Virus record (IMG/VR): IMGVR_UViG_3300045988_073563
DNA from: a virus
Strand: one strand, 5' to 3'
Length of the DNA stretch: 64,000 bases
The stretch's first letter is position 1. Each line of letters starts with the position of its first letter. Positions 23,001 to 46,035 of the stretch are shown piece after piece. The notes under the pieces are model-generated. The model ran no database searches. It was not told the origin of the DNA and worked only from the letters and a program-made list of their open reading frames with translations. Position numbers and translations under genes: made by a program.

Positions 23001-24234
23001 AGAAAGTAGTATTAATCTTGCACTACAATATGGTGAAACTACTAGTCGCAGCTGTGAAGGTATGGATGATTATACTAATCCATATTTAGGTACTACTATA
23101 GATGGAGGTACACTGGGTAATTATAATAAGCAAACCAAACCATATTATGCATATAATGATGCATATTCTGTTCAAGGAGATGCAAAGAAATATGTTACTG
23201 AATCTGCTTACGCAATAACTAATGCTAATAATATAAATAGAATTGTATATTCACAAGCTAAGATTAATAATGAAGTAACAGATAGTTGGTTACAGTTTAA
23301 GTTTGCAGATTACCTAGATGTAGATAATCAGTATGGTAAGATAACGAATCTTAAATCATTTAATGATAAACTATTCTTTTGGCAAGATAGCGCATTTGGA
23401 ATAGCATCTGTAAATGATAGATCTCTTATTACTGATAATAATATTAGTGAGCTTACTTTAGGTACTGGTGGTATATTAACAAGGTATGATTATATTACTA
23501 CTGGTAATGGATCATCTGTTATAAACGACAATAGTATAACTAATTCTGACTTTGCATTATATTGGCATGATAGAGATAAAAATGAGTTATGCCAATTCTC
23601 TGATACTATACATAAGTTGTCTAAAGAGAAAGGAGTATAGACTTATTTGAACGCAAATCCCAACTTTGTAGTTCATGACTCATTCTATGATAATGAATTC
23701 AACGAAGTTAGATTTTGTTTCAATACTAAGACACTAGTATATAATGAATATACCCAAAGTTTTACTTCATTCTATACTGAGAATCCTGCTGGTCACTTGA
23801 AATTTTCTGACAAGTTGTTATATATCAAAGACAATAAAGTGATGCAAACCGAAGATCGTGCGTTAAATGTAATGGAGTGTAAGATACAGTATATTATTAA
23901 TAAAGATATACTATATACTAAGACATTTGACAATGTATTCTTTAGTGGTTAGTTTAGAGACATAAAGAGAATGCTTACTGATGCTACATTTAGAACTACA
24001 GATCAAGTAGGTACTATTACTTAGGATTATGTAAATGGTGGTTATGCTATAGATCATAGAGAAAATACATATAGATTTGCTATAGGTAGAGAATAGAATA
24101 GTGATGATACGTTATCGTATCCGGGTAGATTAAGAGGTAAGTACTTAATATGTGATCTTACTTTGAATTGTGGAGAACAACACAACTTTACTCTCCCTAA
24201 TATTAATACAACATATAGATACTCATTAGTATAA
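20068..24234 (+). CDS. Large tail/structural protein (1388 codons)
   Basis: Track ORFs 20719, 21718, 22732 and 23647 are in one frame with ATG 20068. The gaps contain only TAG (10 in total), and the stop is TAA 24232-24234. The size and position before the cargo and RNAP genes match crAss-like tail-hub or muzzle-type proteins; this assignment is an inference. Confidence 0.6.
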
Positions 24235-25811
24235 TGAAAAAGAAGAATAAGATAAATAAATACCAAACGGGCGGGTATAATTTTAATAGTGACTATATAA
24301 AGTCAAGATACTAGAATATAACTAGCAATCCTTTGCAACCTATTAGTCCTGCAATGTCTGCTCAAGTTCCATAGAAATTATCTGGAAATCCTATACAAAC
24401 ACAACCGTATAATCCTAGTACAAGTCCTAATATAATGGGAGTAGCAGGTAATATGATAGGTGGAGCAGGTGATATGTTAACTCTAGTAGGAGGTAATTCT
24501 AATGCTACTACTGGAGGTGAGGCGGCTAAAGAATCTGTATAGAGTGTATTTAAGGGAGCAGCTACCGGAGCTAAAATGGGAGCAGCGTTAGGACCTGTTG
24601 GAGCCGTTGTTGGTGGAATAGGTGGAGCTGTAGTTGGTTCCATAGGTAAAAGTGGTAAAGTACAAGTAAACGGATTCTATGAAGATCCTACTCTTACATT
24701 AGGTACTGGATTTAAAGGAGCTGTATAGAACAAAGGTCTTAGAGAAAAGTACAGAAGAGAAAAAGAAAGAGTACTGGGTAATAGATTTGCATTACAGAAT
24801 AGTGCACTGTTAAATGCAGATTGGAATGAGACATACGATCAATCTGTAGATACGATGGCATACGGTGGTACTACTTCTAGTCTAGCTTATGTAGACGATG
24901 GTGAACTTATTAATACTCCAGATGGTAGTATATTAGAAGTACCAGAAGAAGGTAAACCTACAGATAGTAATTTAGTAAATATTCCGGAAGGCAGTAGAAT
25001 ATTAAGTGATACTTTGAAAGTGCCCGGAAGTAAAGAAACATTTGCACAAATGGGTAAAAGAATGATGTCTAAAAAGAAAAGCAAAGGCAAAGATAAATAT
25101 GCTGAGAATTCAGCCAAATTGAATTAGATGAATGACCAAATGATTCATGATCAATTATTTAATTTATAGGAATCTATGAAAGGTTCTAATAAACAGTCTA
25201 AAAATAAATTTAGAAATGGTGGTAAACTGGCATAGGGATTGACAGACTTAGCTGCTTTAACTCCAGTATTATCTAACCTAGGAACTACTGCTGAAAGTTT
25301 TGATACGGTATACAATCCATATTCTAGTCAAATACTTAGTACTATGGCTGGTAGAAAGTACGATATTACTCCAGTTAGAAGAGCTATCAGAGAGAATAGA
25401 GCTATATCAAATTACAATGCTTCTCAATCTAATACAAATACAGGAGCTAATATGGCTTATAGATTACAAAGTCAAGTAGCGGCAGATAAAGCTATAGCAG
25501 ATTTATATTCACAGAAGAGTAATATTGAGAATCAATATAAAGGAGAATACGCAAATACTCTCAATAACTTAGGACAGCAATTTGTATCTGCTCGTAACAT
25601 GTCTACTGATTTGAATGCTAGAAGTAGAGCAGCAGCTAGAAATATTAACAGAGAAGCTTTATCACAGATAAGTAATTATGCACAAAACAGAAGGTTAATG
25701 AATAATCAAAGATCTAGAGATATGGCTATGTTGGATGCATATGCTCCTTTCTTAGAGTCTGTATATACTACAGCAGATTATTCTAACTTAATGAACAAAT
25801 TTAGAAGATAA
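24234..25811 (+). CDS. Gly-rich internal virion/ejection-type protein (525 codons)
   Basis: ATG 24234 is in frame with ORFs 24855 and 25239 and ends at TAA 25809-25811. It contains a GAATGAKMGAALGPVGAVVGGIGGAVVGSIG segment. Confidence 0.5.
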
Positions 25812-25812: not shown

Positions 25813-27600
25813 ATGGCAGCAAATATGTACGATCAAGCCGCATAGGCTTAGTTTATTAATACTTATGCTCCAATTAATTTTGGAGAATTGTTTAGAATTG
25901 GTGCAGCGCAGAAAGAAGAAATGGATAGAGCTGCTCAACAATTTGGAGCATAGTTACAGAAATTTGGAGAATTTAGATCACCATCTGCAGTAGATACTCA
26001 AAGTTATTATAATCTTACTACTGGTAGACAGGATATACAGGATGCTATAAATCAAATGGTATCTAACCCAGATGCTTTGAAAGATGCTTCTTTTAGGTCT
26101 AGTTTACAATCATTAATAAATAATATAGATTATTCTTCATTAAGTTTGCTTAAAGAAAGTGCAGATAACCTAAGACTTGGATTACAAACAAGATCTAAAA
26201 TGATGGCTGAAGGAAGGTATAATAAAGAATGGGATGATTCTGACATACCTAACTATAATACATTAGATAAAAGAAGAGTGTTTGATGATATTACTCCTGT
26301 AGCATTTATGAATGCAAATGAGTTGAGTACTCCATACTTTAATGATTTAAAACGAGGATTCTTAGGTACTAAATACATTAATGGAACTAGATATATAGTT
26401 AGTGGTAATAACATGGATGACTTGTATTAGGTTGCATCAGCTAAGTTTAATGACCTTATAGACACTCCTCAGGGTAGAAAATATTATGAAAGTTTTATTA
26501 GAAGAAATGGAGGAGATGTAGAAGCGGCTAAAAGTCAATTTGTTGATATGATAGCATAGTCACAAATTGATAGAACTATTAGACCAGACTATGAAGTAGA
26601 TCCGTCATACATACAAGAGTTGAAAAATGCAGGAAGAGGCGGTTCGGGTAGTACAGTTCCTCAAGGTTTACCAGATTTAACCACCATAGTAGAATCTACT
26701 ACCAATAGAAATATGCTAGCTAAATTTGGAGGATTGTCGGCAGAAGAAAGAGAATAGATTAGAAATGGTAGTATAACTCCAGATGTAATAGAAAAAGCAA
26801 TGCAGAATATGACTGTCAATGTTGATAAAATATTTAATTCTGCAAAAGGTATGCCAAGACAGAAATCCAAAACAGTATTAGATAATATACAGAGTCCTTT
26901 ATCTCCAAATGCTGGTGAAATATTCTTGTCAGAAGGAGGGGAAGGCACTATGAATAAGGGATTTAAAGTATCCAATGAAACAGGTAATATGGTGCTCGGG
27001 GATGATTTTGTTACTGGAATAATTGGGTATGATATGGGTGCTCCACAGTATATTAAACAAGCACTACTCGATCCGGCTGCAAAGAAAGGAAGTAAAAGTG
27101 CAAATACATTTGAAAAATCTCTAATTAACAATGTAAGATTTCAAGAAGCTTGGTATAGTAATAAGTTTAGAGATGTTATTATAAAAGATGCAGGAAGTAC
27201 TGTAGGAGATATAGCTGATATTTATCATAGAAGAAAAGTTTATGTATCTATGAAAGATCTACGCAATATTGGAATGAATATAGAAAATGTAGCATCAATT
27301 GGTAAAGTAGTACCATTCGGAGATATATCTGATTAGGAAGAAATTACAATTAAACAAGAATATGATCCAGAAACTGGTGAAGTGTTAAGCGGTACTACAG
27401 AAAAAGGTTTGAAAAGAAAAAAAATAGACAAATCTGACTTATACGTTGAAGTTGAAGGTCTATATCCTATAGAGACTGGCAGTAGTGAAGCTACAGTTAG
27501 TAGAAATGCGATATATGAAGATAAAGTAAGAAAATTAGGTTCTAAAGAAAGATACCAACAGGCTGTAGAGTCTGCATATAAATACCTTGGTTACAATTGA
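25813..27600 (+). CDS. Virion/cargo protein (595 codons)
   Basis: ATG 25813 is in frame with ORFs 26056, 26800 and 27382 and ends at TGA 27598-27600. Confidence 0.5.
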
Positions 27601-27601: not shown

Positions 27602-30600
27602 ATGGAAGATAACAGATTAAGATTAGGAGCTCGTAAATTAACTAGTTCTACATTTAATGTAAGAGACAGTGTAACTACTAATGATGGAGCGTCAGATAGA
27701 AAGTAGAAAGCTGCAGAATATAACCAGTATGTTCAAGAAAAGGGGTATACCGATCTTTACAATAAAGATGCAGTTAAATATCAGTATCAGCAGCAAGAAG
27801 AAACTAAAGATAAGGATACTTCTTGGTGGAATAAGGGCGCAAGATTTATGAGTATTGCTGCCAATCCTGTGTTAGGTTCATTGGCTAATAATATACAAGA
27901 TTTGTATAGAACCCCGTTAATACAATCTACTATAGAAAAAGCTGTAGAAACCAATATAAGTTCTCTGAAAGGTAATATAATAAAAAACGAAGTAAAGAAT
28001 CTAAATGATTTTGCCTTTGTTAAAGATTATGAAACCAGAAGACAACAAGCTTATGAATTAGCTAAGTAGGGAGATGAGGAAGGAGCTCAAAAAATATGGG
28101 ACACACTATCATAGGATTTCGCTAAATTTGATTAGATAACTAAATCAAATAAAGATCTTATATCTATGTACTACAAAGTTCCTAAAGTTGGAGGAGCTAC
28201 GTATAGTGAAAAAAAATATCGCGGTATCAACTTATTAGGTGAATTAACAGATAGATCCTTAGCTCTTACCAATAGTAATATTAGATTGGCTGAAAAAGCG
28301 GAAGCTCCAAAAGACGTAACTTCAGTTAATGTAAGCAATATTCCTTTATGGAATAGATTTACTATAGCTTTAGACAATATTTTATCTTTTAATAATAGTG
28401 CAGAAGAAATAAGCGAATATGTTAATAAAGGATATGGTGATGCTGTGAATTTTGTTAGAAATGAAGAAGTATCTAATAATCCAGATAGAAGTGGCATAAT
28501 AGCTAAACTTAATCAGTTAGAAGAAGATAATAATACCAGTCATAATGTAAAAACTCAAAAACTTAGAGATAAACAAGAAACCTTACGTAATGGTAGTTGG
28601 TTCTTTGATCCTGATGCTATTGACCCAGTATTTAGAGAAAAAGTAAATAATAACGAGTTTCAATGGACTGAACCAAGATCTTACTTATATGCTCTTCCAC
28701 AAATAGGATCATCAATGGGAGAGTTTGCTACTACTATAGAAACTGCTACTCTTGGTAGATTAGCTGGATTAACAGCTAAAGCATTAGGTAAAAGAGGTAT
28801 TCCATATGCTTCAGCTGCAGTTACTTTGACTGAAGCTGCTATCAATGCTGGGAATCAGTACTATCAAAGAACATAGGAAACAAATGCTGAAATCTTTGAC
28901 TCATATCTATCTAACTTGGTTGGTTAGATGGAAAAAGGAGATATTAATCCAGAAACCATATTAACCAAAGGAGCTTAGGGGTTAGAAGCTAGGGGAATAA
29001 ATGTACAAGAATTAACTGTTCCACAGATATTAGAGGAAATGTTAGTGTACAATATCAATACAGATGACCCTAGTTTTGAGAAAGCCAAGTATGATGCTTA
29101 CTTAGGATTGCGTGATGTAGAACAATCTAATATGGCGTTAGGTCTATGGGATTTAATGGATATGGGCTTGTATTCTTATGGAGGCAAACTGGCAATAAAG
29201 TCTGCAAAAGAAGGTTTTAAAGACGTAGCTAAAGGAATTTCTAAAGCAACTGGAGTAACAAAAGCCTTAAACTTAGGAGGTAAGTTTATAGATAATAGAA
29301 TAAATAAAGCTCTTTATACCATAGCTGGAAAAGATGTTTTCAAAGCTAATAAGTATAAAGACTTATTTAATACTATGGGCAAAATGAGCGGTAAACTAGG
29401 TATAACAGCTTTTTCAGAAGGAACTGAAGAAGGTCAGCAGTATCTTATACAAAAAGATTATCAGTTATAGAATTCATATAATAGCGGAGAATTAACTTTA
29501 ATAGATGCTTTTTTAAAGAATTTTAAATACGGTGCTGAAGCCAACTTAGCTCTTATGGGGTTACATCCAGACGATGCTTTAAATAATGATAAAGAACTTG
29601 AGCAGAACATGAAAATTGGAGCTTTAATAGGCTTAGTAATGGGAGGTCCTGCTACAGCTATTTCTGACGGATACCAAATGATACGTAATGTGAAGTCAAA
29701 TAACATGCTTCGCAATATGGCTGCATATGATATATCTAACAGAGAAAACGATGTTAAGGTAGATAGATGGTTTGATGCAGTAAAGAAAGGGTATACAGAT
29801 GATATATTGAATAATCTAGTAGATATAAAAGATAGATTTACTCCGGAAGGTCTTACACAAGAAGATATAGATGAAGATATAGTTAAAGCAAAAACTATAG
29901 AATCTATTTATTATAATCCATCCGTTAATACTAATCTAGAAGATTTAAATATAAATAGAGGATCTGATAAACATAAAATTTTCGTTAAAAATGCGATTAA
30001 AGCATATGATAATGAGAGAATATACAATGAAAAAACAAAAGAGGCAGACGCTAATTTGTAGAATTTACTAAAGATTAATGATGAAGAAAATGCAACTGCA
30101 TTTAATTCTAATGTAGATGAATACTGGAATGGGTTAACAGAAGAGCAAAAGTTATCTTGGAACAATAGTAAAGACGAACTGGTAGCAGCTATAAAGAAGG
30201 TTAGAAACCTGACTGCCACTTAGACTGTATATAGTAGGTTGAGAAGGTAGTTAAAGGATATGGACAAATTTGTTAGTGAAGCTAAAAAGAATGGTTTAGA
30301 TGTAACTAATGAGAATATAGCAGCTATAGCTTCTTACATAAATAAAATTTCTAAATCTTTAGAAAAAGAGGTAAAGAATATTCCTAATGCCAAAGCTATG
30401 GTAGATATATTTGGTTTATCTACCAATAAAGAAATAGATCAAGCTATTGCAGATAAGGCTATACTTACTGGTTTGTTACATAAAGCTGTTAATAGAAGAT
30501 CTGCATATTAGAATGGTATTGTGGTAAAAGATAATCAGAACAGGCAGATAGATTTTAATATCAGAAATTGGAATCAACTTACTCCAGAAGAGCAACAAAC

Positions 30601-33600
30601 TATAATAGATAAGTAGACTAGTGAAGCAGAGCAGAATGGGAAAGATGCTCCATCGTTAGCTAGTATTATAGCTAGATATAATTAGAACGTACAACTGCAG
30701 ATAAAAATTCAGGGTGAAACTGTAAGAGCTGCTAGGGATTATGCTAATGAGATAATTAAAGCAGATATGGACAGATATGAACAAAATGATAGGTCATATA
30801 CTGAACAAGATGTAGCTTTAAATGCAGAAGTAGAGAATGCCCTTAACTAGGATACTGAACAAGATACATCAGAAGTTGATTTTACTCCTACTGGTAATGC
30901 TGACAGTTCTTCTCCTTTACAAGGCACAGATATTAGTGTAAAGACAAAAGAGAAGAGAAAAGACAAAGACATCTATACTCAAACAGATGAAGATAAATTA
31001 ACTAAAGCTAAAGAAGAAGTAGATACAGAAGAATTAGATGTAACTGATTTAGTTTCAACTGAGGATGCTCCAGACATTAGTGATGAACAGGAATCTATTA
31101 GGGAAAGAGCAATCAGGGAAGTAGAAAATCCATCTGAAAAAAAACCCAAAGACGATACTCAAGATAAAATTACAGAAGAAAATATAATGGATGCCAAGAA
31201 CTGGGCAGATCCTGAAGATGATTTAGGTCTAACCAGAGATGATAATCCTGATATTGAAAGAGATCTTACTTAGATTGAAGATCTTACTCCAAAGGAATTA
31301 GACGCCAAAATACAAGAAGCAGAATCTACAGATAGTCGTAGTGACAATCCGTAGGCTGGAGATTTCTTTGTTTCTAATGATGGTAAAATGTTTCTTAACG
31401 GGGTGGAGATTACAGATGAACAATTAGCCAAAGAAAATTCGTACGATGAGTATGCAAATGATCCAGAACACACATTATCTGAAAAAGCTAATAAACTAGC
31501 AAAAGAAGGTGAAAAAGTTCCCGGGTTATCTACATCTGAAACTATACGAAATAATTGGTTAGTTGGTAGAACTTTATTCTATAGACCTGACGCTACACAA
31601 CCTATGTAGCTTCCATTTAAAGTAAAAGGAGCTAAAAAAATACACAGTGGCAAAGAACTTGGAGAGGCTATGGGTAAACCGGGATTCTTAGATGGTGCTA
31701 AATTGTATTTAGTGCCCGGTCCTACGTTCGATAAATCAGAAACATAGTTTGATCCTAATGATCCTAGAACCTATGAGAATGCAGCTGTATATGTTATAAT
31801 TGACAAAGACGGAGATATATACGCTGCAGCATATAGAAGTCAGAAAAAGGCTACTTTAGATTATCAACGTAGATTGGGGGCTGAAAACATTGGTCCCGGT
31901 ACTAAAGCTAATGAAGATCTTGAAGTACTAAGGGAACAGAAACAAAAAGTAGTTAGAGCCTATCTGCAGCAATGTCCAAAAGATAAGAACGGAAAATATG
32001 TATTACCAGATGAAGCCCTAACCCATGTAGTGCCTACTCAAGTAAATGTATCTAATGGGGTGTTTAATAATCAGAAAGACGGTAACAAGCCTAAATTGAG
32101 GAAACTGTCAGAATGTAAGACATTTGAGATTCCTCATAATCCATTAGACATATTCACAGAATGTACATTTGGATATGGAACCGGTGGAATGAGTGATGCA
32201 AACCCATACTTTATTAAACATATGGGTAATGATGAAGCACTATATACTAGTGGTGGTTTCTCTGGTAAAATAGTAATAGTACCTAAACCATCTGCCACTC
32301 CTAGAGGTAGATATTCTTTGCCTATATATTTGAGTGAAAAGTTCTTTAGAGATGATAAAGTAACTAAACCATCGCAGATAGTATTAAAGAGTCATGATGA
32401 AAATGGAAACCCAGCATCAGATAGACACTATACTAATTTTATGGAATATGTTTTAGATCTTATTACAGACGGAGACCCATATGGAGTACTGCCATTGATA
32501 GTAAATCAAGGAGCTAAAACTAGATTATCTTCAAAGAAACAAGAAGCTGCTCAATATCTTGCAAAGAAACAATTAGGATTTGATCCAGATACTAACAGAT
32601 TCTATATAGCATTACCAAATAGTCAAAGAGGTGGTTTGTATTTTAGAACAGAAATACCATTAGAACAAATAAAGACAGAGCCTAATGTCAGAAAGATGGT
32701 CATATGGTTTATGATGCAAAACTTCCACTGGAACACTGATAAAAATGTATTAACCAGTTCGCTTCCAGAACAGCTTAGAGATTTGGCTATACGTTTGAAT
32801 CCAAAAAATGATAAGATAGTACTATTCCCCGGAGAACTGGAATTTACGTTACAACAACTAGGTATTTCTAGAGTGGATGGTAAACTTGTAAAAGATAAAG
32901 TTGCCCCTCCTGCTATGGCTTGGACTATTGACAGTGGCAAGTTACTTACAGATATGGGTGATTATGCATTTAAAGATGGGTTTATATACATAGAAGATAT
33001 AACTACAGATCAAACTGAAACTGCTGTAAGTGCGTCTACGTATCCTATAAGTAAAAAATCCTCTAAACAAGAGGAAACAAAAGAGATCAAAGAAAAAGGT
33101 ACTAAGTTTTTTGGAAAGAAACAACTTAGAGACGTATTGTAGAAGTATAGACAACAAGTAGATAGCACTTAGGTTGAAGATTGGGGTATAGAGCAAATAG
33201 CAGAATTTGAAGAATATCTTGGTAAACATATCAGTACAAACAGAATGGAGGAGAACGGTAATACCATTACCAAATCTACATTTGAAAGAGGAAGTATCGT
33301 ACATGTTACTAACAAGTAGTCAGATTATATAACCCAATTCTTTGATAATTCAGATAATCCTATAGGAGAACCGATGGTAAATCTATCTATGAACTCTAAG
33401 TTGGCAATGGACTTATTAAAGAAAGATAGTAATGGATTTTTAAGTTTATCTGATGAATCTATCCGTAAGATATTCACATATAATGCTACTGAAGAAACAG
33501 GAACTAGAGAAACAGAAGTAAAGCCTGTTGCTAAGGTTAATAGAAGAGCTAAAGCTCAAGAATTAGCTAGAACTATAAAACCATCAGATGCAAATGCTCC

Positions 33601-36600
33601 TAAAGTAGGAAGATTTATGACTTCTGATGAGATAAAAGAATATGCAGATGGCTTGAATCAAAAAGTAGCTACTGACAGTTTCGTATATCTGTATGATTAG
33701 GATGGTAAACCTCAAATGTTTATCAGAAGTATGATGGAAAAGCTTTTCCACGAGGTTGGAAGAGAAGTGAACGGATTATATTCTATAGAAAGTAACGAAA
33801 TAGGGCGTGAAGAACAAGATCTTAAAGCTGCTAAGCAATGGTTGATGGATAAACTTGGTCTTGCTGTAGATCAGGTTAGAATATTCAATGGAGTAATGAG
33901 ATCTGCTTCCAATGGTCCTAGAGTGTATGGTGTTACAAGAATGTCTGTTGGTAATGTAGCTAATATATTATTAGGTAAAGGAGCAGGTTTGGGTATATAG
34001 TATCATGAGGCTTGGCATTATATAAATATGCTTGTACATTCTGCTGCTGAAAGATAGATAATATATGAAGATTTCATTAAACATAATCCAGAGTATAAAA
34101 ATAGAACAGTAAATGAGATAGAAGAAGCTATGGCTGAGGATTTCCGTAATTGGGCTATAGTAGAGAATGCTAAATGGTTTCAATTAGGTTATCAAACAAT
34201 AAAAGCTTTTAGAGCTATAAAAGGATTCGTAAAATCATTATTTGGTATATCTAATAATTTGACTACTAATATATATAGAAATATCAATAAAGGTAAGTAC
34301 AAAGAATATTAGATGAATCAATCTTCTGTTGATGAATTTAATAAAGCTTATACAAAAAAAGGAGTGTATTTCTCAATACCGGGAGTAGATCAAGATAGGT
34401 TAAAAGATATGCCCTCTATTATTAATCCGGATGTATTCTATAATGTAGTAGATTCTCTTACCAGTACTTTATTATCTATATTCAACATACGTAAGGCACA
34501 AGATATAGATAATTTAAGCTAGAATTTAGATTATTTACCTTCTATAATTGAAAGTAATATGATGGCAGGTATAACTCCAGAAGAGAATGATCAGCTTATA
34601 GAAGAAGTATTAGATAATTGGGACATATTCAAACAGTCTTTGGTAGAACAATTGAGTTCTCTTAACATAAAAGCTGTAGAAGTTGAAGAAAAATCTGATT
34701 ATGATACTGGAGAAAAGAGACCTGATGAGAAATATGATAGGGTATCTTATGAATTTTCTAAGAAACTTAACATGTCCTTCAATGCTAAACTATTCTTCTA
34801 TTCTATACCTAAAATGGAATATGATAAATCTAGAAAACTAGTACCAGTAACTGATCCTATTTTTGGTCTTAATATGACAGAATCTTTTGATGTTACTTGG
34901 AATAAGATCATGGAGAATTTGTGGGACATTGAAAGATGGGAGGATTTAGAAAGCAGATGTGCTAGATTAGGCAAAGCTGACCCGTTCTTCATATCATTAC
35001 TTAATTATATAAGTGGTGCTAATAAACCTGACGAGAATACATGTACTCAAATTCTCACTACCATTAAGAGTGCAAAAAATGAAATGACTACTGTACAGTT
35101 CTAGGATGCATTTTAGAAAGTAAAAACTAGTGCTGGACTAGAAGAATTTGTAAAAGATATTAAGACTACAGTTAGAGCTAAGTCTGGAGAATGGAGAGTA
35201 ATTGATTCAGCAGTATTCAGATATCAGAATAAGTATCCTAGGCAATGGGGTAGATTATTTTATGTATCTGGAATGATAGATAAAAGCGATGTAAACAATT
35301 TTGTAATAGACTCTGAAAAGTTAAACAACTTAGAGATAAGATTAGAAATAATAGCTGACGAATTGTCTGAAATAGCTCAACCTTTCATAAATAAAAAAAT
35401 GAAAGGGTCTAATAAATTATCAGAAGATCAGATAAGACAAACTACAGTAAAAGCAAAATAGGATTTTGTAGAGATACTTAATAGTATTGGTATTGATGTA
35501 GATACTAAAACTATAGATTATCTGTTATATGGTACTGAAAGTTTAGATAAAAAACTACCTACAATAGAATCATTTGATAAATTATATACCATATTGAGAT
35601 CTACTAAGAAAGGAAGTGCTAGAAACCAAATAATAGGTAATCTAAATAAGTTACAAGAAGGAGAATCTAAAGATTTGAAATTAGACAATCCTTTTCCAGC
35701 TGCAGAAGGTAGTTTCATACAAAAATTAGCTATAGCACACGGTAAATCTCATCCTAATCCTACTGAATTTAGTGTAACTGGACCTAATAACACTACTATT
35801 TATCCTATTACTCAAAATAACTATATGTCAGACAGAGTTAGATGGTTTAATCAAGATGCTTCTGAAGTTGATAAAACACTACTAGCCACTTATAATAAAC
35901 ACTCTTTATTATTAGGGGCACTGAAATAGGGTTCTAAATTAAGCCTCAGTACTCTTATTGCTGTGCGTAATGCTGATAATAGAGACAGTAGAGACTATTT
36001 CTAGATATCACCTACTGAGGACTACATTGCTAAACTTACATTAGCTCATCAGAATAGAATCGTTATGCCAACTATGGCAGATAAAAAAACATGGTATTCT
36101 ATAACTGGAGTTAATCTATTTCATGATTTATTAAGCAGATCTAGAATGACAGAAATACAAACAGAGAATGGTATTCAACAAATGTTTGTAGAAGATGATA
36201 TGTATAGGTATTCTGATAATACTCTACAAGCCATATCGGATTATCTGCTAGATGAATTCAATGCTGTATACGATTACTATATACACAAATCTGAAGTAGA
36301 AGAAAACCCTAATTTACGTATTGATAATTATCATGGTAAAATAAAGAATGGGGTTATGGACAACTCTGGTAATGGTGGTTATTTTAGGTATTTCTCTTCA
36401 CTTAAGATGAGACAACAAGATGGTACATATAAATATGTTCCTTTAAATCAGATGTTGTGGGCTTGGTCTAAATTTGATTATGATAATGGTGGTAATTAGA
36501 TGGAGACAAGATTAAAACAACTCCGAAATACTTTATTTGGAGACAAAGAAGCTCTATTTGATGCGATAAATGCAACATTATAGGATAAAGTCCAAGAGGA

Positions 36601-39600
36601 GATAACATTCCTAGTAGATAAAGGAATAGTAAGAAGAGATGGTACAGAACTTGAAAATGTATTACTACCTACAAATATAGTGAAAGAGTATACAGATAGA
36701 TCTAAAAATCTAACCTCTGGTGATACATCTAGGAATAACAAGTCTGCTGCCGTTTATTCTATTATCGCAAATCATGTAGTAAATGAAATAGTATCTATAA
36801 ATGAAATTGAAAAAGCATTCGTAGGAGATCCTGCTTACTATAAATGGAAGAGAGATAAAAACAAACCATGGATAATAGTAGAAAGATCTGTAGATAAAAT
36901 TAAACGTCTTGGTTCTGTATTGTCTACTGGGGATAATCTTAGAACTTTTTGGGGAGATGGAGATGTAAGAAATAATTCTAAATTTACTGTATTACACATG
37001 AGTGATAATATGGTCAAATCTGTAAAATTCGATGAATACAAAAAGATGTTTACATCTGCTGAAGTAATGAAATATTTACAAAGGAAGAACCCTAACATTA
37101 GTCAGAGGCAACTTATTAATATGGTAAGTAAGGATAGTATTAATAAGACATTAAAAACTATTGACGCTAAATCAAGAAAATCAATTGAAGATTCTGTGGA
37201 AAGACAAATCGCAGCATATGGGGTTAACAACAGAGGAGAAGGTAATATAAATTAGGCGGATGCTGCAGTTTATATTAGACCAGCCTTATATAAGAGAATT
37301 ATCCAAGCTGTAGGAGAATGGTCACCAGAAGTTGAAACGGCTTTTGAGCTTTTAGAAAGTGATAATCAAGAGTGGTTGTCTGATCCAAAACAGTATGCTC
37401 AAGCTTTGGAAACGCTTATTAAACCATTGAAGATGGTGTACTTCGGAAATCACAACTTGACTAAGTTAGGTTTGAATGTTCCAGTATTTGATAAGATGGC
37501 AATATTCCCATTATTTAAAGTAATGGCAAAAGCTGATAACTATCATTTATATCAAAGAATGAACAATGATGAGCTGGGAACCATAGATATGCTTACGTTT
37601 GAATCAGCAGTTAAAGTGGGAGGTAGATAGAAATTTGCTCCATATAAAGATGCAGATAATTCTAGATTTAATATAGAAGATTTAAATAGACCTTCTACAT
37701 CTACAGTAGTTGAAGAAACTAATTTCGAAGGTTTAGATACTGATAATTCTAAGTTACCTACATATATACAAGATCTTAGAAATTTACGTCTGTAGATGAA
37801 CACAGATCCTCATGAAAGCGTAGATAGATCTCTAGGTACGCAGTTTGCCAAAGTAGCCTTAAGTAATTTAATAAAAGATAGACCATATGGTTTAAATAAA
37901 GATGTAGAATACACCGGTAGATAGATTATAGATAATATATTTGGAGCTATAAATAGATTATCTGACATTGGAGCTCAAAAAATATATGATGAATTCTTAG
38001 AAGATGGTAAACCTTCTGAATAGAAACTATCTAAGTTCTTAATATCTCAAGGAAAATCTAGTGGTTTATCAAGAGATGCTTTATCTTCATTTGAAATAGA
38101 CAAAACTACTAGACAAATCAAGGTACCTTTGTCAGCCCAAAGTAATAGAAGATTTGTAGAAAGTAGAATAATATCAAGAGTAGGAAAAACTGCCATTGAT
38201 ATTAATACTCCCGGTGGATCCGCTATCCAACATGCATTCTTTGGATTTAAAGATACTACTGGAGTATAGAAGCAATATCAAGTAGGTAGAGCTTTTAATG
38301 ATGGTAAGCCTTTAAATCCTCTTAATAGCGATGGTAGTATGGATTGCATGTTGAGTACTAATTTCTTTAAACATATAGTTCCTAAGAAATATGCTTCTGA
38401 TTATACTGCTATGAGAGACTGGTTGTTAGATAAGAAGATAATTGGGCAAGATGCTAAACCTTTTGCATTAGGTTATCGTATTCCAACTCAGGGTCTTTCT
38501 TCTACATGTTCATTAAGAGTTACAGATGTGTTACCAGAATCTATGGGGGATGTTATAGTAGTTCCAGATGATTTTACTGCTATGACAGGATCTGACTTTG
38601 ATATTGATAAGCTATATATAGCTACAGGTTATTATGATAAAGATGGAAATTATTTGCAATGTAATTGGGACGATTTATCTAGTAATTCTGAAAAATAGCT
38701 TGTTAATGGTCTGATAGACATGTATAGAGTTGCCATATCAGATGATAGTAACATTGATCAAAGTAGAGCACCTCTGGATAATCTTACAACTAAAGTAAAA
38801 GAAGAAATAGTTCCTTTAGTTATGGGTAAATCTAAAGAGGAATGCAAGCCTATGTATGAACTCCTTCCTTCTTATTAGTTATTTAAGAAATTTGAATATA
38901 CTGGAGGTAAAGATGGTATTGCTCCGTTTGCTCTTGCATCAACCAATCATGCTCTTACTCAAGCTCTAAACTTAAAAATGGATCTTGGATCAGTAGGAGA
39001 TACATATAATTTAGGGAATATAAATGATGTATTGTCACAAGATGGTGAGAGAATATTGGATTGGTTATCTGCAATGATTAACGCCCATGTAGACGTTGCA
39101 AAAGATCCATACATTATTAATCTTAATGTTAATTCTGTTACATATAGTATGACAGAGTTCTTGTTAAGGACTGGAAAAGGTGAAGTAACATTTTATTTCT
39201 TATCCCAACCAATACTTAAGGATTTTGCCAATACGTTGATAAAGCTTAATGGGCAATATGGAGTAGATCCTAGTGATGTTAGTTATTCTGAGCTCATGGA
39301 TGATACTTTATTTGAGTTGAAAAAATAGTATAAAGAAGAAGCGGAAGAATACATAAGTACTCTACCTAAAGAAGAACAGAAGAAGTTGCTAAATATATTG
39401 GATAATTGGGACGATAAAGATAAAGGAGTTGACAAATCATTAGCAGTAGATCCTTTAAAACTTGAAAAATCTTTGAACAGCAATATAAAAGGAGAGAGAA
39501 ATCTTGATTTCTATATTCAACAACTATTAGTAGCAGACGCTTATTCTAAAATGTTGCCATATGCTGAAAGACTAGCAAAACTAGTAAGATTATCTCAGAT

Positions 39601-41365
39601 AGATACTAAAAAATATGGTAATACTCTATCACAACAGGCTAACTATAGCAAATAGGTATTTGACTTTATAAGAAAAGAAGGAGAATAGTTTTATCAGGTA
39701 GATGATAAAGGTTCTGTTATAGAAGGAGATGATGTAAATGCTTTAATGAACTACTATGTTGACAGTTTTCTAATGAAGAAACTTACTAATGCAGTAGATA
39801 TTCCAAGAAACATACTATCAAGTTCGTTCTTACAAGCTACAGATATGTACAGTGGAATGTTCGTAAGTCTTGCAAATGTTATAACAGGAGATAGATCTAA
39901 TATGAACAAACAAGTTGCTACTAAATTAGATTCTATCATAGATAGTATTATAAGATCTAGAATAGCAAATAGTATAGAAGAAATGCATCTTGACGATGGA
40001 GAATATGCTAGAATGGTATTAGGTGATTGGACTGTTCCTAAAAGACTGTTTCAATTTAAAGCAGCTATTAGAAAGAATGATAATGGTAAATATAGTAGCA
40101 TGTTAACAGGAGATGGAACTATTAATAATTCATTCTTAAATTACTTAGTTCCTACTGTAGCTACTGATCTTACAGATACGGATTCAATAACTTTGTTGAA
40201 CAACTCTATGAGTAACAGTGCTAATTTCGAAAATAGACTTATAGCATACTTTAGTGATTTATTACAAAGTGACAATGAAGCTGTTAGAAAGTTCTCAAAG
40301 AGATTGGCTAAATACGCATTCTACACTTCTTACGATAATAAGAGTCCAAATTCCTTTGCTCATTTAATATCTAGTCAATATAGATTAGATACAGGGTATG
40401 CTGATGAAGTGAGAAGAACTATTCATGACATGAATAATGGTAGTTGGTTAAACAACATACTTAGCGATATTGATGAACCTACGTTAAGTAAGTATACTTC
40501 TTTAGCTATGATAATAGCTCGTAACAACGCTCATGATCATGAAATAGTTAAGAATGTAACTAGACCAAAATCAAATTCTGGTAATTCATCTGCATTTATA
40601 TATGAAACAGCTCCTTGGAATGATGAATCTCAATATTTAGTTAGTTTCGCTACTAAGTCAAGGAAAGATGAAAGAGATTTCTTAGCCATTGATTATCCAC
40701 AAGGTAATAGTAGAAATACTGTTTTATATGTTAAAGCTGGTAAAGTAGAAGCATACGATAAGAAGAAAGCTAAGAAATTAGGTCAAGCTACACAAACTAT
40801 ATATGTAGCAATACCAAGATTAGGTAGAACTAAAGGTAGTGTCAACTTAAGTGAATACTTCAAAGATTACAATCAATTATCAGACTTTTCAGAAAACAAT
40901 ATTAATACAATGACTGGCGAATAGATTATAGAGTATTTTGGTGATCATGAAAAGTTTAGATTAGCTGTGAAAGGATCTAATTTTAGCGATGTGGATATTA
41001 CATTCCTACCAAGTCAGTATATAACGGAAGATTTTGTATTTACTAAAGATCCATACAATCAAGAGGTGAACAATAATGAACCTACTCTTGAAAGTAATAC
41101 TCCTAAAACTGTAGCTATGGAAAGCAAGAAAATAGATAAAGAAGTTGCAGCAGAATCTGGTTTACTTAATAGAGATAATTTAATGAATAAAGTACAACAA
41201 CAATTATTAATAACTCAAGCATTGTCGGAAGCTGATATTCAATCAGATCCGTTATCTGGAGTAGAATCATCTGGACTTGATATTACAGGCATGTTTACAA
41301 CAGAAGATGATTTAAGTAAAGATAATTTTTCAGACGAAGCATTTAACATTTGTAAAAGTAAATAA
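27602..41365 (+). CDS. Giant reading frame (4587 codons) containing a crAss-type two-barrel virion RNA polymerase domain and an HExxH motif
   Basis: From ATG 27602, 22 track ORFs (27848...40967) all share one frame. I read every gap and found 46 TAG and no TAA or TGA until TAA 41363-41365. GYRIPTQGLSS...GSDFDIDKLY (DFDID at 38594-38608) resembles the DxDxD metal-binding loop of crAss-like gp66-type RNAPs. YHEAWHY lies at 34001-34021. Confidence 0.7.
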
Positions 41366-41367: not shown

Positions 41368-44300
41368 ATGGCAAAAGGAATATGTCCAATTTTGAGTGAC
41401 CCAAAAGTAAAAGCAGAATTTGAAGAATTAGTAGATGCATTGGGTGAAGTATAGGCTTACGCTGTGTGGGATTAGAATGGTGGGTACAGTTTAGATAAGG
41501 CTCCTAATGGGGAGCCTTCTATACTGTTTGAAACATTATTGCAACACAATAATGGTAATAGAGTAAATGCTATATAGGCTAAAGCTAAAGTATACACAAA
41601 TAGTTTTAAAGCTTGGTTTGGAGATTGGGTGAATGATCCTAAAAATTCTTCAAAAGTAGTAGACGAAAATGGCGAACCATTAATAGTATATCATGGAACC
41701 AAATAGGAATTTGAACAATTTTCCCCTGAAGAAACAGCCAGAGCAGATGTTGGTTTTTTCTTTACTTCAGATATACACTATGCTAATCAGTATGGTAAGT
41801 TTATAATACCTGTATATTTATCTATAAAAAATCCTTTTCAGTCACAAGAAGAATTAAATTTTGACACTGTAGAAACAATAATGACTAATGAAGATACTAT
41901 ACGAAATACGGATGGTATAATTGGTCACGATTAGAAATTAGATCTTAATCAGTCACAAGGTGTTGAGTATGTAACTTATACTAACAAATAGATAAAATCT
42001 GTAGATAATAGTGGGTCCTTTAATCCAAATTCTGCAAATATATTTGATAGAGAAACATCTCCGTTACAACAACAAACTATTTATCAAATAGACGAAGCTA
42101 TGTAGAGATTTCGTGCTCAAAGATACGATTTTGACTCTACATTAGATTCTATAAGACAATTAATTACCAATGCTGTATAGGCTCGTATAAAAGCTATCTA
42201 GGGGCGTAATATTTAGAATAAAACTGCTTTATTAGTTCCGTTGGAACAATAGCTGGCGTCTTTAAAAAATCCCAATATTACATCATTACAAACTATAGTA
42301 TTCTGTTTATATGATATAAATAGGACTATGACCGCTCCAGTTAATGCTATATTACAGGCACAGAAGAATCTTAGAGAAGGTAGAGATAGTGGGTTTAGTA
42401 ATCTAGCATTAGTTCAACTCTAGTAGGATTACTTTGGCATGTACAATAATGTGTTAGAAGAAATAGCTAAGAACATATTTGATTCGAATATATATCAAGA
42501 TCTATTAGGTAAAGAGAGCTTTGACTAGTTAAAAACTATGATAAGTAATATGCGTACACAGTTTGCTGCAGCAAAACAAGGTATAACGGAACTTACTACA
42601 GATTTAGCTCAAAAGACATTACTTCAATATGGTATAAAAGATGAACTTAGCAGAACAGAACTTGAAGAATATGTTAGTTCTGAATTAATAACTACTGAAA
42701 ATGACGTAACTACTTTAATGCGTTGGATCTCTGCCGGAGATAAAATGAATGATAAGGCGGCTCGTGTTATATTTGACATGGTAGCAAATGCTAATAATAG
42801 AGTAAGATTCAATACTCATAAATTTGGTAACAGAATGCTACGTCTGTAGTAGAATGTAGCAATTGGTGAATAGATGAAATTATTTGAGTATGATTCCGAT
42901 GGAAAAAAGACAGGATATTTTATTAGAGATAGAAAGTATGGAGAGTTTATGAACAACTTGGAAAATGAAAGAAAAAGATTGAAAACCAAGTATAATGTTC
43001 CGGAAGGTTAGAAGCTACCTTTAGATAAAGAAGCTCGAACTAACTTTAATAAAGAAATGAATGAATGGCTAAGTAATAATTGTGAAAGAAGATACACAAA
43101 GAAGTATTATGACGCTTTTAATTCTTTAAGTCAAGAAGCAAGAGATGCCAGAGATGCTATCCAATTTAAGATATACAAACTCCTTGATGATGTAAGAGAT
43201 AATAAAGGTAGAGTACATATGGAAAATTTGACAGAATCCCAATGGAATCAATACCTAGATTATAATACTTAGAAAAAGCAATTAATGTCTAGATACTATG
43301 AAAATGGTACTCCTAAGACAGATATGGATTTACAAATTGCATAGGAGTTAACGGATCTTAATAAAACTCTTCACGAAGGTATGCATTATGTAACCAATAT
43401 GGAGAAATTTAACGAAGCTAAGGCAGAAGCTAAAAAGAATTTAACTTCAGAAGAGTATGAAAAATGGAAAAAAAGATATACAAGAGAAGAGATAAGTGAG
43501 AAGTTTTATAAGCAATTAGCACAGTTAAATAAAAAAACATACGGAGATGAATATGCCCAATTACAAGAAATGAGAGAAGACCTAACCAAACCTTATAGAA
43601 ATGAATATACTGGAGGTTTGGATGTTAGGAGAATGTCTTCTCAATTATTGGGTACATTAAAATCTATAGACAGATAGATGCGTAAAATCCGTAAAAATAC
43701 TCCAAAAGTTAAAAAGCAACAGTAGGCTGTAGAATTCGAAGATATAGCAGAGGTAATACCGACTGAACAATATAAAATAGATAAAGCTAATGCTCTTAAA
43801 CGCGGAATAGAGTTTTATGAAGCTTGGGAACTTACGCATCATATAGTATATTATGTTGGAGATCAAGAAGTTAGAAGACCAAATTGGTATTATACTAGAG
43901 TAGTTCCAAAAGACAAAACCCTAATAAATACAGAAGCTCCAACAAGAGAATTCAGTGAGATAGATCCAAATTCTGAGTATTTTAATAATGATTTTGATAC
44001 TAACATTGATGAATATTATCAGCCAAAATCGACTATCTATACCAACAAAGAGTACTATAGCCTGTTTAAACCTGTAAAAGATAAAAATGGTGAAGACGTT
44101 GCTACTAAGAATAAAGCTTTATGGGAGTTATATAAAGGATTGTTAGGTGGTATGGAAGAATCTAACGACAAAGTTACTTATCTTACAAGAAACAACCCAT
44201 ACAGACTTCCATAGATGAGTGGTAGCATGTATTAGTATATGAAAAATGATGGTGTTATCAAAGGATTCTTACAATAGACAAAACAAGGTATTGTAAAAGA

Positions 44301-46035
44301 AACTGATGATGTAGGATTTGTTGATGCTCCAACAAGTAGACCAGATGGATCTGAACAAAGATTAATACCAACATATTTTATTGACCCCATTAGGAATGAA
44401 AAAGGAGAACCTGATCCAAATAGAATAACTAATGACCTTGTAGGAGCTGTTATTGCATATTATAAGATGGCTGAAAATTTCAAATAGAAAACAGAGATAC
44501 AACCAGATTTAGAAGTTATTAAAATGCAATTAGCAAATAGAACTTTTACAGGAAAACCTATAGGAGTAGATGCCACTGGTAAAAAAGTATACAAGCAAAG
44601 TAATAGAAAAGAAGGTAAGGATACTAACGTATATAAGTTTGTAAGTAAGTTTATAGACATGCAAGAGTATGGAGAAGAAGTTAAAGCTCATTTACAAAAA
44701 ATAAGTAGTGATAGTAGAATAGGAAAGTTCTTTGGCTTAGCTGGAACTGAAATCAACTGGAGTAAAATAGCATTATCTGTTAAAAATTTCGGTCAATTAA
44801 TAGGTTTAGGATTGAATTTAGCAGTAGGCGCTACTGGTATGGCTACAGCTTTTTTACAGCAGTTAGGATTTGTTGCTAATGGAAGATATTTTGATTTTTC
44901 TTCTTTTTCTAAAGCATATTTCAATATGGTTAGTAACATACTAGGTATAATGCATTATATGCATAGTACTACTACGGATAATAAATACGTAGCTTGTATG
45001 CAACATTTTGAAATAGGTACTGAATTCTAGAACGCTTACCGTAATTCTAACAGAATAGGTATCATAAATACTATTTCTAGAAATTGGGCTTTTGGAATTT
45101 TCTCATTTTCAGATTTCGTGATTAAAGGTACACTATTAAATTCGATTATGAATAACTATAGATACTACAATGGAAAATTCTATAATAAGGAATAGTTCAT
45201 TAATATCATAGGAAATAAAGAAGATGCTAATAATATATGGAAATCACTTCATAGCACATATGATATTATAGAAATAAAAGATGGTAATATTCATATTGAA
45301 AATAAAGCGTATGCAAAAGCATTTGCAGAAGTAGAAAATCAAATAAGTAATGCTGCTAGATCTTTAGCTGCTACTGCAGATGGACAATTAACAGAAGAAC
45401 AAAAAGCACAATTTACTAATAATGCTTTAGGTTCTATAATAATGATGTTTCGTAATTATATACCTAATCTTATTAATGAAAGAGTAACTATGAAAAAATA
45501 GTATGACTATGATTTAGGTATGAAACGAGAAGCATTATATAGAACAGTAGGTAGAGTAATACCTATGCTAATTAGAGATTGGAACAGTAGAAAATCTTTA
45601 GATTCATCTGATATAGGTAATCTCAAACAATTTGGCTTTGAAATGTCTACTATTATGTTATTATCAATGGTAATAAAACCATTATTAATACAAGCGGCAG
45701 ATGATGATAAAGATAGTTGGGTTATAAATTTCTTAGCTTTATTAGTTACTAGAACTGGCTTCGAGTATTCTAATCAATATAATCCTTTAGATTTGCTTAA
45801 TACTTTAACTTCTGTAAGTTCATTAATTAACATAGTTAACCCATTTACAAACATAATGTCTTTGAATGAGATGTATAATATGTTTAATGACAATAAACGT
45901 ATTAAATATGGTCCTTACAAAGGAGATACTAAAGTAGAAAGATGGTTATGGAAAATGACTCCATTTAAAAACATTAAAGAGATTCAAGATCCAGCACTTA
46001 AAAGGAAGTATTACGAATAGTTATACAATAAATAA
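41368..46035 (+). CDS. Large virion/cargo protein (1555 codons) with an N-terminal ART-like segment and C-terminal hydrophobic helices
   Basis: ATG 41368 to TAA 46033-46035, read codon by codon: 30 TAG and no other stops. It contains VVDENGEPLIVYHGTK(TAG)EFEQFS...FFFTS. Hydrophobic segments are IGLGLNLAVGATGMATAFL and TIMLLSMVIKPLLI. Confidence 0.6.

Follow-up and report, generated by a model that had tools for sequence, protein, structure and literature searches.

The 64,000-nucleotide stretch of viral DNA analyzed here (hereafter, the window) holds a transcription block in which one giant gene sits between a gp44-like gene upstream and a gp49-like gene downstream. Similarity and gene order identify its source as a gut crAss-like phage of the Suoliviridae (Crassvirales, former delta group): the window shares 75% nucleotide identity over 5.5 kb with Buchavirus cr52_1 and cr56_1, and a synteny of five genes with classified Suoliviridae. 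The features of the locus are:

20068-24234, + strand: crAss001 gp44-like muzzle protein, syntenic with the cr52_1 block gp31-gp33
24234-25811 and 25813-27600, + strand: proteins of ~525 and ~595 aa, within the block syntenic with cr52_1 gp31-gp33
27602-41365, + strand: giant late gene of 4587 codons and a terminal TAA, 46 of the codons being TAG (Gln); encodes a protein of 519.9 kDa, pI 5.3
27602-30850, + strand: N-terminal region (aa 1-1083), conserved only within Suoliviridae, the first ~300 aa most divergent
30851-31351, + strand: acidic low-complexity linker (aa 1084-1250), 32% D+E, net charge ~-31
31469-33031, + strand: conserved middle domain (~aa 1290-1810), 25-37% identity across the family
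33101-33448, + strand: strain-variable insert (aa 1834-1949, 116 aa), within an indel hot spot just upstream of the zincin domain
33806-34306, + strand: predicted zincin-like metallopeptidase domain (~aa 2069-2235), homologous to the C-terminal part of crAss001 gp47
34307-34429, + strand: seam (aa 2236-2276) joining the gp47-like to the gp66/gp50-like part, where gp47 similarity stops and gp66 residue 107 aligns at aa 2276
34427-41362, + strand: virion RNA polymerase module (aa 2276-4587), a homologue of phi14:2 gp66 and crAss001 gp50
41351-41353, + strand: Cys4584 in ...AFNICKSK, a single conserved cysteine at the very C-terminal end
41368-46035, + strand: TAG-recoded downstream gene (1555 aa), homologue of crAss001 gp49 and of the C-terminal part of phi14:2 gp65 (RNAP-associated virion protein)

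The giant gene runs from ATG to TAA over 13,764 nt. A recount of its 4587 sense codons bore out the preliminary description of a single frame interrupted by TAG alone: it holds 46 TAG and no TGA, and TAA occurs only as the last codon. Base composition predicts ~296 TAA or TGA by chance in as many codons (ln P of none = -306), and the remaining two plus-strand frames of the same interval contain 236 and 578. No other TAA/TGA-free run in the window comes close: the second longest measures 1620 codons. The earlier argument that independent genes would drift between frames agrees with the neighbours starting at 25813 and 41368, both of which use a different frame. The frame stays open 5' of the ATG as far as 27530; ATG 27602 is nevertheless the start: the TAA of the preceding gene lies at 27598-27600 and the N-terminus (MEDN...) is kept in relatives. 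dN/dS is 0.06-0.17 overall and below 0.45 in every computable 300-codon bin, including the seam. The interval is one real gene, coding throughout. An artefact of assembly or sequencing that masks frameshifts or a gene boundary has a negligible probability as the source of the uninterrupted frame: no point was found in its support, whereas three complete IMG/VR strains, near-identical (98% aa identity) but assembled independently, show the identical frame and ends, and 16 cr52_1-like complete copies are also intact, their length differences from the window keeping the frame.

Comparison with relatives identifies TAG as a glutamine codon in this gene. In-frame TAG is abundant in all plus-strand late ORFs (up to 48 per ORF, positions 1-46035), and nearly absent from the minus-strand block at 46095-64000, where most ORFs have none. 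In the standard-code relatives cr118_1, cr10_1 and cr55_1, 6-8 of 37 window TAG columns are Gln, compared to a background of 3-4% (P = 6e-4 to 5e-5), and TAG codons 3218, 3398 and 3759 lie opposite CAA or CAG in nearly all relatives, i.e., at near-invariant Gln positions. The same reassignment has been proven by proteomics in crAss-like phages (PMC9523058). If TAG were instead a genuine stop under the standard code, the region would comprise ~47 short genes, or several, sharing a frame by coincidence. Table 11 does break the frame into fragments of ≤465 aa, and no suppressor tRNA(CUA) was found within the 64-kb window, outside which the TerL region falls. However, cr52_1 carries such a tRNA upstream of TerL, standard-code relatives encode the same protein without stops, TAG columns match Gln codons, homology to gp66 continues straight through many TAGs, dN/dS is low throughout, and coding density collapses without recoding. 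The chance that these TAGs terminate genes is vanishingly small; the string of TAG-terminated genes is already refuted by comparative data.

The last ~2300 aa of the product are, by homology, a crAss-type virion RNA polymerase with a DFDID catalytic loop. This loop (aa 3665-3669, nt 38594-38608) aligns with gp66 1361-1365 and follows GYRIPTQG (aa 3624-3631, nt 38471-38494). The preliminary description had read the pair as the two-barrel RNAP of crAss-like phages; its coordinates were exact, and the homology to gp66 of Cellulophaga phage phi14:2 (PDB 6VR4), which has DFDID and GYRIP(T/N)QG as in the window, is significant. The window protein matched 6VR4 by phmmer at E=5e-36, and a Suoliviridae family HMM matched gp66 at 2.7e-98 (covering gp66 108-2087) and gp50 at 1.7e-63. 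The module also matched 140 phage records annotated as RNAP by tblastn, as well as PHROG 16227 (profile length 4401). DFD[IV]D is invariant in 10 RefSeq-level and 22 representative giants, and from the collinear homology to 6VR4 we infer that the window polymerase adopts the two double-psi beta-barrel fold.

Two further observations concern this part of the protein. The DFDxD motif is interrupted in about one third of related lineages, which is not the case in the window. As for the terminal cysteine, 21 of 22 complete giant homologues have a Cys in their last 6 residues (1.4% expected), and a C-terminal Cys is also present in phi14:2 gp66 and gp67, crAss001 gp47 and gp50, and the p-crAss zincin protein.

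The ~170 aa directly before the polymerase constitute a predicted zincin-like HExxH...EExxAExF domain. HEAWH, already described as a zincin-like motif at exactly these coordinates (nt 34004-34018, aa 2135-2139), has a TAG codon on either side in the window; all 10 sequences compared, crAss001 gp47 among them, have HEAxH. A second zincin motif, EEAMAEDF, is present, and IEEAMAEDFRNW at 34118-34153 contains the candidate third zinc ligand; at the sequence level, E..A..F within (E/D)ExxAExF is invariant in the same number of sequences (n=10), 35-36 residues past the second His. By blastp and HMM, the domain matches gp47 at 2094-2213, and a GKY motif of the window protein matches gp47 at ~2278-2294. 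The best PDB profile match was PPEP-1/Zmp1 (M34) at a sub-threshold E=0.054, with HExxH and EExxAExF aligned, such that PPEP-1 EEFFAESF lines up with the candidate third-ligand motif. Pfam ATLF matched 1 of 10 members, below the gathering score (E=0.0023).

The seam that follows is conserved, varies less in length than any other part of the protein (sd 2.7-5.8), and contains no linker and no recognisable cleavage motif over aa 2236-2276. Being conserved, indel-free and devoid of such elements, it speaks somewhat against cleavage exactly there. It does contain a TAG (34310) followed directly by an ATG (34313), which could act as a leaky stop and restart, yielding a gp47-like protein and a separately initiated polymerase besides the fusion. 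That this pair falls inside a 41-residue seam mapped independently from the gp47 and gp66 alignments favours such an arrangement. Yet 25 TAGs precede 34310, the first at codon 35, so that a suppressor-short ribosome would stop long before; in relatives, the TAG position reads GAA, AAA, CAA, AAC, ACT, CCA or AAG, and Met occurs there in only 2 of 10, so neither is conserved; and the gene has no TAG at all in three relatives. We thus regard two products arising from this pair as highly improbable, and equally so their appearance when suppressor tRNA is limiting; from sequence comparison, initiation at seam codon 2238 is unlikely.

No relative outside Suoliviridae was detected for the N-terminal 2060 aa, which precede the zincin domain. 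Over aa 1-1083, tblastn matched Suoliviridae giants only, no Pfam or PHROG match was obtained, and no HMM similarity was detected to crAss001 gp45, gp46 or the gp47 N-terminus, to phi14:2 gp67 or to the p-crAss protein. The region had earlier been called cargo-like, which holds only loosely, as crAss001 gp47 is a virion cargo protein; for the N-terminal 2060 aa, no similarity to gp45, gp46 or the gp47 N-terminus was detected. The acidic stretch first placed at about 30850-31350 was confirmed at 30851-31351, with 53 D+E against 22 K+R in 167 residues; in relatives it is of similar length and poorly conserved (13-17% identity to distant ones), yet against close relatives it is still under purifying selection. 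The middle domain was found in 57 clusters among 1.84 billion representatives, 33 of them giants of 3127-6282 aa; its single-sequence AlphaFold model was unusable (pLDDT 33). The insert at aa 1834-1949 has no Pfam match and is absent from cr52_1-like genomes, while strain L017 has 28+109 aa more at this position, and length variation at this hot spot is high (sd 47 aa per 100-aa bin).

The same fusion is found in all Suoliviridae members examined. In nine RefSeq genomes (cr52_1, cr56_1, cr60_1, cr53_1, cr113_1, cr118_1, cr10_1, cr273_1 and cr55_1), the gene is annotated as one CDS of 4328-5794 aa, with which the window protein is collinear end to end, as it is with 19 complete IMG/VR copies (the complete assemblies with an intact giant gene). 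The gene is TAG-recoded in six of the nine and lacks any in-frame stop in cr118_1 (4946 aa), cr10_1 (4460 aa) and cr55_1 (4551 aa). Identity to the window protein is 65% for the giant CDS of Buchavirus copri cr52_1 (NC_055888, YP_010112106.1, 4464 aa), relative to which the window protein has the extra 116-aa module and a diverged first 300 aa, and 27-34% for the other aligned RefSeq giants, which are collinear over their full length. The RefSeq giants occupy the same site, between the muzzle/cargo genes and the gp49-like gene, and carry the same HEA[WFY]H and DFD[IV]D, 1444-1876 aa apart; both motifs occur in one chain in 22 unrelated, divergent clusters. Their C-termini differ: cr118_1 has an SF1 helicase C-terminal accessory domain, and cr113_1, cr10_1 and L035 have SLOG/DprA-like C-terminal domains (named from motifs), all of which are absent from the window protein. 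Product names such as 'nuclear pore complex protein-like', 'exonuclease V' and 'DprA-like' do not reflect the polymerase. The suggestion that a single 4.6k-aa frame would be unusual was therefore not borne out: all four Suoliviridae subfamilies carry the fused gene. Likewise, the proposed comparison of gene boundaries across Crassvirales, once run, showed that Suoliviridae relatives keep one frame. The giant fusion is ordinary because it is standard in the family and already described; a review gives crAss RNAP genes of 'up to ~6000 aa' (PMC10136315), and published work already treats these proteins as fused "polyproteins", possibly processed by their zincin domain.

Relatives were also expected to split this region into several genes. 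They do so in crAss001 and phi14:2 (Steigviridae) and partly in p-crAssphage, but not in Suoliviridae, the closest described relatives. In crAss001, the block is divided into gp47, gp50 and gp49, all found in virions by mass spectrometry (PMC10172136); the C-terminal zincin region of gp47 corresponds to window aa 2069-2235, gp50 to the polymerase module and gp49 to the downstream gene, for a total of 6102 aa compared to 6142 aa in the window. The crAss001 genes differ in that gp50-gp49 are inverted onto the other strand, whereas the window has all on the same strand, and in that the N-terminal 2000 aa of gp47 have no detectable similarity to the window protein. The downstream gene of the window, separate and in another frame than the giant gene, matched gp49 (1e-24) and gp65 (8e-12) by blastp and is 71% identical to cr52_1 gp35. 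The gene block of phi14:2 likewise includes a zincin HExxH domain and a gp49-like module, but is made up of three separate genes (gp67, gp66 and the zincin plus gp49-like gp65; 1797, 2180 and 1421 aa) rather than one fused gene plus a gp49-like gene. Its HExxH is N-terminal in gp65, downstream of the polymerase gene, whereas that of the window precedes the polymerase, and phi14:2 uses the standard genetic code. p-crAssphage (Carjivirus; CrAssphage LMMB MT006214) shares both the modules and their order, and the HExxH of its first protein is close to the C-terminus, but it breaks between the zincin domain and the polymerase and fuses the latter to the downstream gp49-like module instead. Its products are annotated as 'RNAP associated protein/zincin protease fusion' (1957 aa) and 'RNAP catalytic subunit/RNAP subunit fusion' (4070 aa), and by BLAST the DFDxD region alone is alignable with the window. 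The gene boundaries of this block thus shift between families, and fusions are already annotated.

Taken together, these results make it very probable that the locus is a TAG-recoded Suoliviridae late gene joining an N-terminal region, a zincin-like domain and a virion RNA polymerase. Judging from its phi14:2 and crAss001 homologues, the gene would be transcribed late, and its product carried as cargo in the capsid until ejection alongside the DNA, after which the polymerase part would transcribe the early genes on the opposite strand. Translation would proceed only once the phage amber-suppressor tRNA(CUA), encoded next to TerL in relatives, is available. We propose that the protein is made and packaged as one chain, and that the zincin domain, located ~100-200 aa upstream of the region equivalent to the cleft-blocking domain of gp66, may act in cis at or after ejection, freeing or activating the polymerase. 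Proteolytic processing of the chain at some stage is, in our estimate, an even bet, and putative autoprocessing by the HExxH region is a reasonable proposal.

Almost as plausible, though slightly short of even, is that the chain is never cleaved and works as one multi-domain ejection-and-transcription protein, as does the 3500-aa N4 virion RNA polymerase; at the same near-even level, the zincin domain would in that case serve a structural or regulatory purpose or be directed at host targets, e.g., peptidoglycan, a digesting role that Drobysheva et al. also propose. N4 gp50 and the polyvalent proteins are giant, packaged and ejected proteins that combine an RNAP with a zincin-like HExxH domain akin to anthrax lethal factor, and for which autoprocessing has been proposed (PMC5512222; PMC13434306); N4 vRNAP, an uncleaved giant, retains within a single polypeptide an N-terminal domain, the polymerase and a C-terminal domain with HExxH (PMC13434306; PMC5512222). 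An uncleaved chain would also fit the fixation of the fusion throughout the family and in 22 or more divergent clusters, and a seam that is the least length-variable part of the protein and has no linker. The likeness to N4 has its limits: N4 gp50 has no sequence homology to the window protein, its polymerase is T7-like and single-barrel-free whereas that of the window is predicted to be of the two-barrel type, and its HExxH domain is C-terminal rather than N-terminal to the polymerase. Moreover, the same modules are separate polypeptides in three other families, and therefore covalent linkage is not required for function; published opinion leans to cleavage of fused forms; and the zincin domains of polyvalent proteins, in which variable accessory domains occur, are proposed autoprocessing hubs (Iyer et al. 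2017), P1 DdrB being processed (PMC5512222). A more specific version, an uncleaved 520-kDa two-barrel machine resembling N4 vRNAP, with a functional C-terminal Cys and two insertion hot spots for loading effectors, appears unlikely. If true, the Cys in the last 6 residues could mark the protein for packaging or tethering, or control the zincin domain as a cysteine switch, and at the hot spots (aa ~1820-1950 and the C-terminal tail) strains would be able to equip the polymerase with different effector modules for injection.

The giant gene adds nothing new in kind, as fused zincin-polymerase polyproteins are a documented hallmark of crAss-like phages. It is nevertheless a clear example for annotation: standard-code gene callers shatter it into dozens of fragments and the RefSeq names of its homologues mislead, while code 15 and comparison with standard-code relatives recover the 4587-aa gene. 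For work on possible cleavage of the chain and on the role of the zincin domain, a topic that concerns the whole order, concrete experimental targets are provided by the seam at aa 2236-2276, the zinc-site residues, which are invariant, and the C-terminal cysteine conserved among the homologues.

The giant gene (27602-41365, + strand) runs for 13,764 nt from ATG to TAA, and its frame contains 46 in-frame TAGs, no TGA, and TAA as the last codon only. Base composition predicts ~296 TAA/TGA codons over its 4587 codons, and the other two + strand frames across the same interval contain 236 and 578 of them; the giant frame is the longest TAA/TGA-free run of the window, almost threefold beyond the next. 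The uninterrupted frame proposed in the preliminary description was thus borne out, and the other features it reported here are real as well: the acidic stretch occupies aa 1084-1250 (D+E, 32%), and HEAWH, GYRIPTQG and DFDID were found at or beside the positions proposed for them. Opposite the acidic stretch lies an antisense ORF (31270-31839, - strand, 190 codons), in which two TAGs must be sense; it was not counted as a gene.

We compared this frame with those of related phages. Megablast retrieved two Buchavirus (Suoliviridae) genomes at 75% identity, in each of which the homologous region is one RefSeq CDS (4464 and 4461 aa). Seven more RefSeq Suoliviridae, spanning all four subfamilies, have a single CDS at the equivalent position (4328-5794 aa), and in three of these seven the giant gene has no in-frame stop of any type, indicating that the reading frame is independent of recoding. 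Ten giant proteins align end to end and are collinear, such that the comparison of gene boundaries suggested in the preliminary description came out in favor of a single gene, with all nine RefSeq Suoliviridae keeping one collinear CDS. A scan of IMG/VR yielded 22 loci. The gene is complete in 19 of them, at 4444-4724 codons, and in these copies the frame contains 29-55 TAGs and neither TAA nor TGA; three of the 19 are strains 98% identical to the window. Relative to the window gene, dN/dS was 0.06-0.09 in close strains and 0.14-0.17 in the group of the phage cr52_1, and was below 0.45 in all computable 300-codon bins, those over the acidic stretch and the domain junction among them. Moreover, the TAG-free middle domain of the giant protein, searched exhaustively against 1.84 billion representative proteins, returned 57 clusters; 33 of these are proteins of 3127-6282 aa, and HExxH and DFDxD occur in one chain in 22.

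Taken together, the RefSeq, IMG/VR, dN/dS and cluster evidence excludes two other readings of the frame. A sequencing or assembly artefact is excluded by the same complete frame in IMG/VR copies and RefSeq relatives, and a series of many short TAG-ended genes by the stop-free relatives, the collinear giants and the low dN/dS. These results show that the giant gene is one coding frame and that the fusion is family-wide. Of note, a second protein collection (5.8 billion), queried with a 762-aa junction-spanning sequence, gave no match at E<=1e-5, not even fragments; the family can escape word-indexed searches entirely (0 there, 57 clusters among the 1.84 billion representatives). In a separate comparison with one 98%-identical strain (L018), dS stayed near 0.02 over aa 1-1800 and again over aa 3900-4587, whereas aa 1801-3000 (~33000-36600) gave 0.6-1.2, a jump that indicates recombination within the gene and makes it a mosaic between strains.

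Allowing TAG as a sense codon turns + strand positions 1-46035 into closely packed long ORFs, each with many in-frame TAGs. On the - strand, the block 46095-64000 needs no recoding: it is whole under the standard code, and in-frame TAG is almost absent from it. This distribution corresponds to the late/early split described, with confirmation by proteomics, in TAG-recoded crAss-like phages (PMC9523058; PMC7886860). TAG was shown to encode Gln in the giant gene by examining the columns under the window TAGs in cr118_1, cr10_1 and cr55_1, relatives whose homologous genes have zero TAG: 6-8 of 37 are Gln, where the background is 3-4% (P = 6e-4 to 5e-5), and nearly every relative has CAA or CAG where the window gene has TAG at aa 3218, 3398 and 3759. 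ARAGORN found no tRNA in the 64-kb window, from which tmRNA is also absent; the TerL region of this phage lies outside the 64 kb. In the cr52_1 record (L014), a tRNA with anticodon CTA (an amber suppressor, annotated tRNA-Gln) sits directly upstream of TerL (27288-27363; record 93287-93362). A tmRNA is encoded there too (15172-15552; record 81171-81551).

The C-terminal half of the giant protein matches the phi14:2 virion RNA polymerase gp66 (6VR4 sequence) with E=5e-36, and a family profile reaches 2.7e-98 over gp66 residues 108-2087; further matches are crAss001 gp50 and 140 phage records that carry an RNAP annotation. The full-length protein had no meaningful match in Pfam and PHROGs, and a PHROG match appeared only when the polymerase core was searched alone. 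Upstream, aa 2069-2235 are similar to the C-terminal part of crAss001 gp47, whose HExxH is covered by the match, and in an alignment of nine Suoliviridae with gp47, HEAxH and the downstream E..A..F (in EExxAExF) are invariant. Against PDB, the best match of this alignment's profile was the M34 zinc protease PPEP-1/Zmp1 (E=0.054, weak), with the HExxH and the EEFFAESF helix aligned. In PPEP-1/Zmp1, this helix carries the third zinc ligand. One family member matched Pfam ATLF (anthrax lethal factor; E=0.0023), and the HExxH domain of N4 vRNAP was related to lethal factor by Iyer et al. 2017 (PMC5512222). The putative zincin-like domain agrees with the published 'zincin-like' label, though the profile match itself is not significant. 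As for the first ~2000 aa, relatives are confined to Suoliviridae giants, and an HMM of the N-terminal 2060 aa showed no similarity to crAss001 gp44-50, phi14:2 gp65-68 or p-crAss proteins; the name 'gp47-like' is therefore justified for the last ~210 aa only, plus position and size. One TAG-free segment modelled alone gave a pLDDT of 33.

The gp47 similarity ends at a GKY motif (aa 2231-2235) and gp66 residue 107 aligns at aa 2276, placing the seam between the two parts at aa 2236-2276 (nt 34307-34429). It is conserved, with the smallest length variation of the whole giant protein, and the alignment of relatives revealed neither a linker nor a conserved internal Met. A TAG-ATG pair (34310-34315) lies inside the seam, yet neither codon is kept in relatives; the pair is thus probably a coincidence, and a stop-restart at the seam was rejected. 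We give even chances to proteolytic processing of the giant chain at some stage. The modules act as separate proteins in other phages, zincin hubs are proposed autoprocessing domains, and no more than 100-200 aa separate the zincin domain from the downstream segment (aa ~2343-2410) aligned with the gp66 cleft-blocking region (~184-253). However, N4 vRNAP remains intact, and strong conservation and the missing linker argue against the seam as the cleavage site.

Eleven of the 33 large clusters (P0002, P0004, P0013, P0014, P0015, P0017, P0024, P0026, P0031, P0037 and P0038) stop exactly within the catalytic motif, at ...TGSD or ...TGSDFD, and in some a similar read-through sequence (NQYNIKNxxNCW) follows. 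This pattern suggests that, in roughly one lineage in three, the DFDxD codons are interrupted by an inserted element, perhaps a self-splicing intron. In the window, DFDID (38594-38608) is uninterrupted, and Rfam found no family over the whole window and no intron signal in the giant gene. Two insertion hot spots were found (listed loci: L017, L035, L005, L006 and L008). At the first (aa ~1820-1950), the window carries a 116-aa module (aa 1834-1949; 33101-33448) missing in cr52_1-like phages, and L017 a further 137 aa. The second is the C-terminal tail from ~40500, which in relatives holds an SF1 helicase (cr118_1) or SLOG/DprA-like GGxxGxD motifs (cr113_1, cr10_1, L035); these accessory domains are the likely source of product names like 'exonuclease V' and 'DprA-like' in RefSeq. 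Three strain-specific insert modules had no match in Pfam. A length difference was also seen two genes upstream of the giant gene (24234-25811; ~525 aa, versus 680 aa in cr52_1), where tblastn gave two blocks with a ~430-nt gap in cr52_1, i.e., an internal insertion/deletion difference.

In 21 of 22 complete giant homologues, one of the last six residues is Cys (expected 1.4% at the overall Cys frequency of 0.24%); in the window it is Cys4584 (41351-41353; ...AFNICKSK). Unfused proteins also have it, namely phi14:2 gp66 (..QECK) and gp67 (..TIC), crAss001 gp47 (..RCNS) and gp50, and the p-crAss zincin protein (..SCM), and it is absent from gp49/gp65-type proteins. The literature examined on these proteins makes no mention of it.

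Bayfield et al. identified gp47, gp49 and gp50 as cargo in crAss001 virions (PMC10172136), and Iyer et al. 2017 defined 'polyvalent proteins' as giant chains that virions deliver and that contain a zincin hub, N4 vRNAP included (PMC5512222). By homology, the giant protein would be expressed late, dependent on a suppressor tRNA, packed as capsid cargo and ejected either before the DNA or together with it, and its polymerase module would transcribe the opposite-strand early genes. The gene directly downstream (41368-46035) is homologous to crAss001 gp49 and to the C-terminal portion of phi14:2 gp65, and the block is arranged as follows.

Arrangement of the block in four groups
Suoliviridae (window): N-terminal region, zincin and RNAP in one gene, followed by gp49-like
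crAss001: gp47 (N-terminal region and zincin), followed by gp50 (RNAP) and gp49, inverted
p-crAssphage: associated protein with zincin, followed by RNAP with gp49-like
phi14:2: gp67, followed by gp66 (RNAP), followed by gp65 (zincin and gp49-like)

The window phage represents an undescribed lineage, its nearest named species being at 65% aa identity, with near-identical copies in IMG/VR. The preliminary description had considered a single frame of this size unusual, which is wrong for Suoliviridae, given the one CDS of 4328-5794 aa in nine RefSeq genomes; its interpretation was otherwise essentially the published one. In Suoliviridae, the virion RNA polymerase gene ordinarily takes this giant form, for which annotation and discussion already exist. 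Yutin et al. 2021 wrote of 'several large, multidomain proteins' with variable boundaries in their description of the transcription block (PMC7886860). Summed block lengths are alike across the four groups (about 5400-6140 aa), which, together with the shared modules, indicates that the families cut the same modules into genes at different points.
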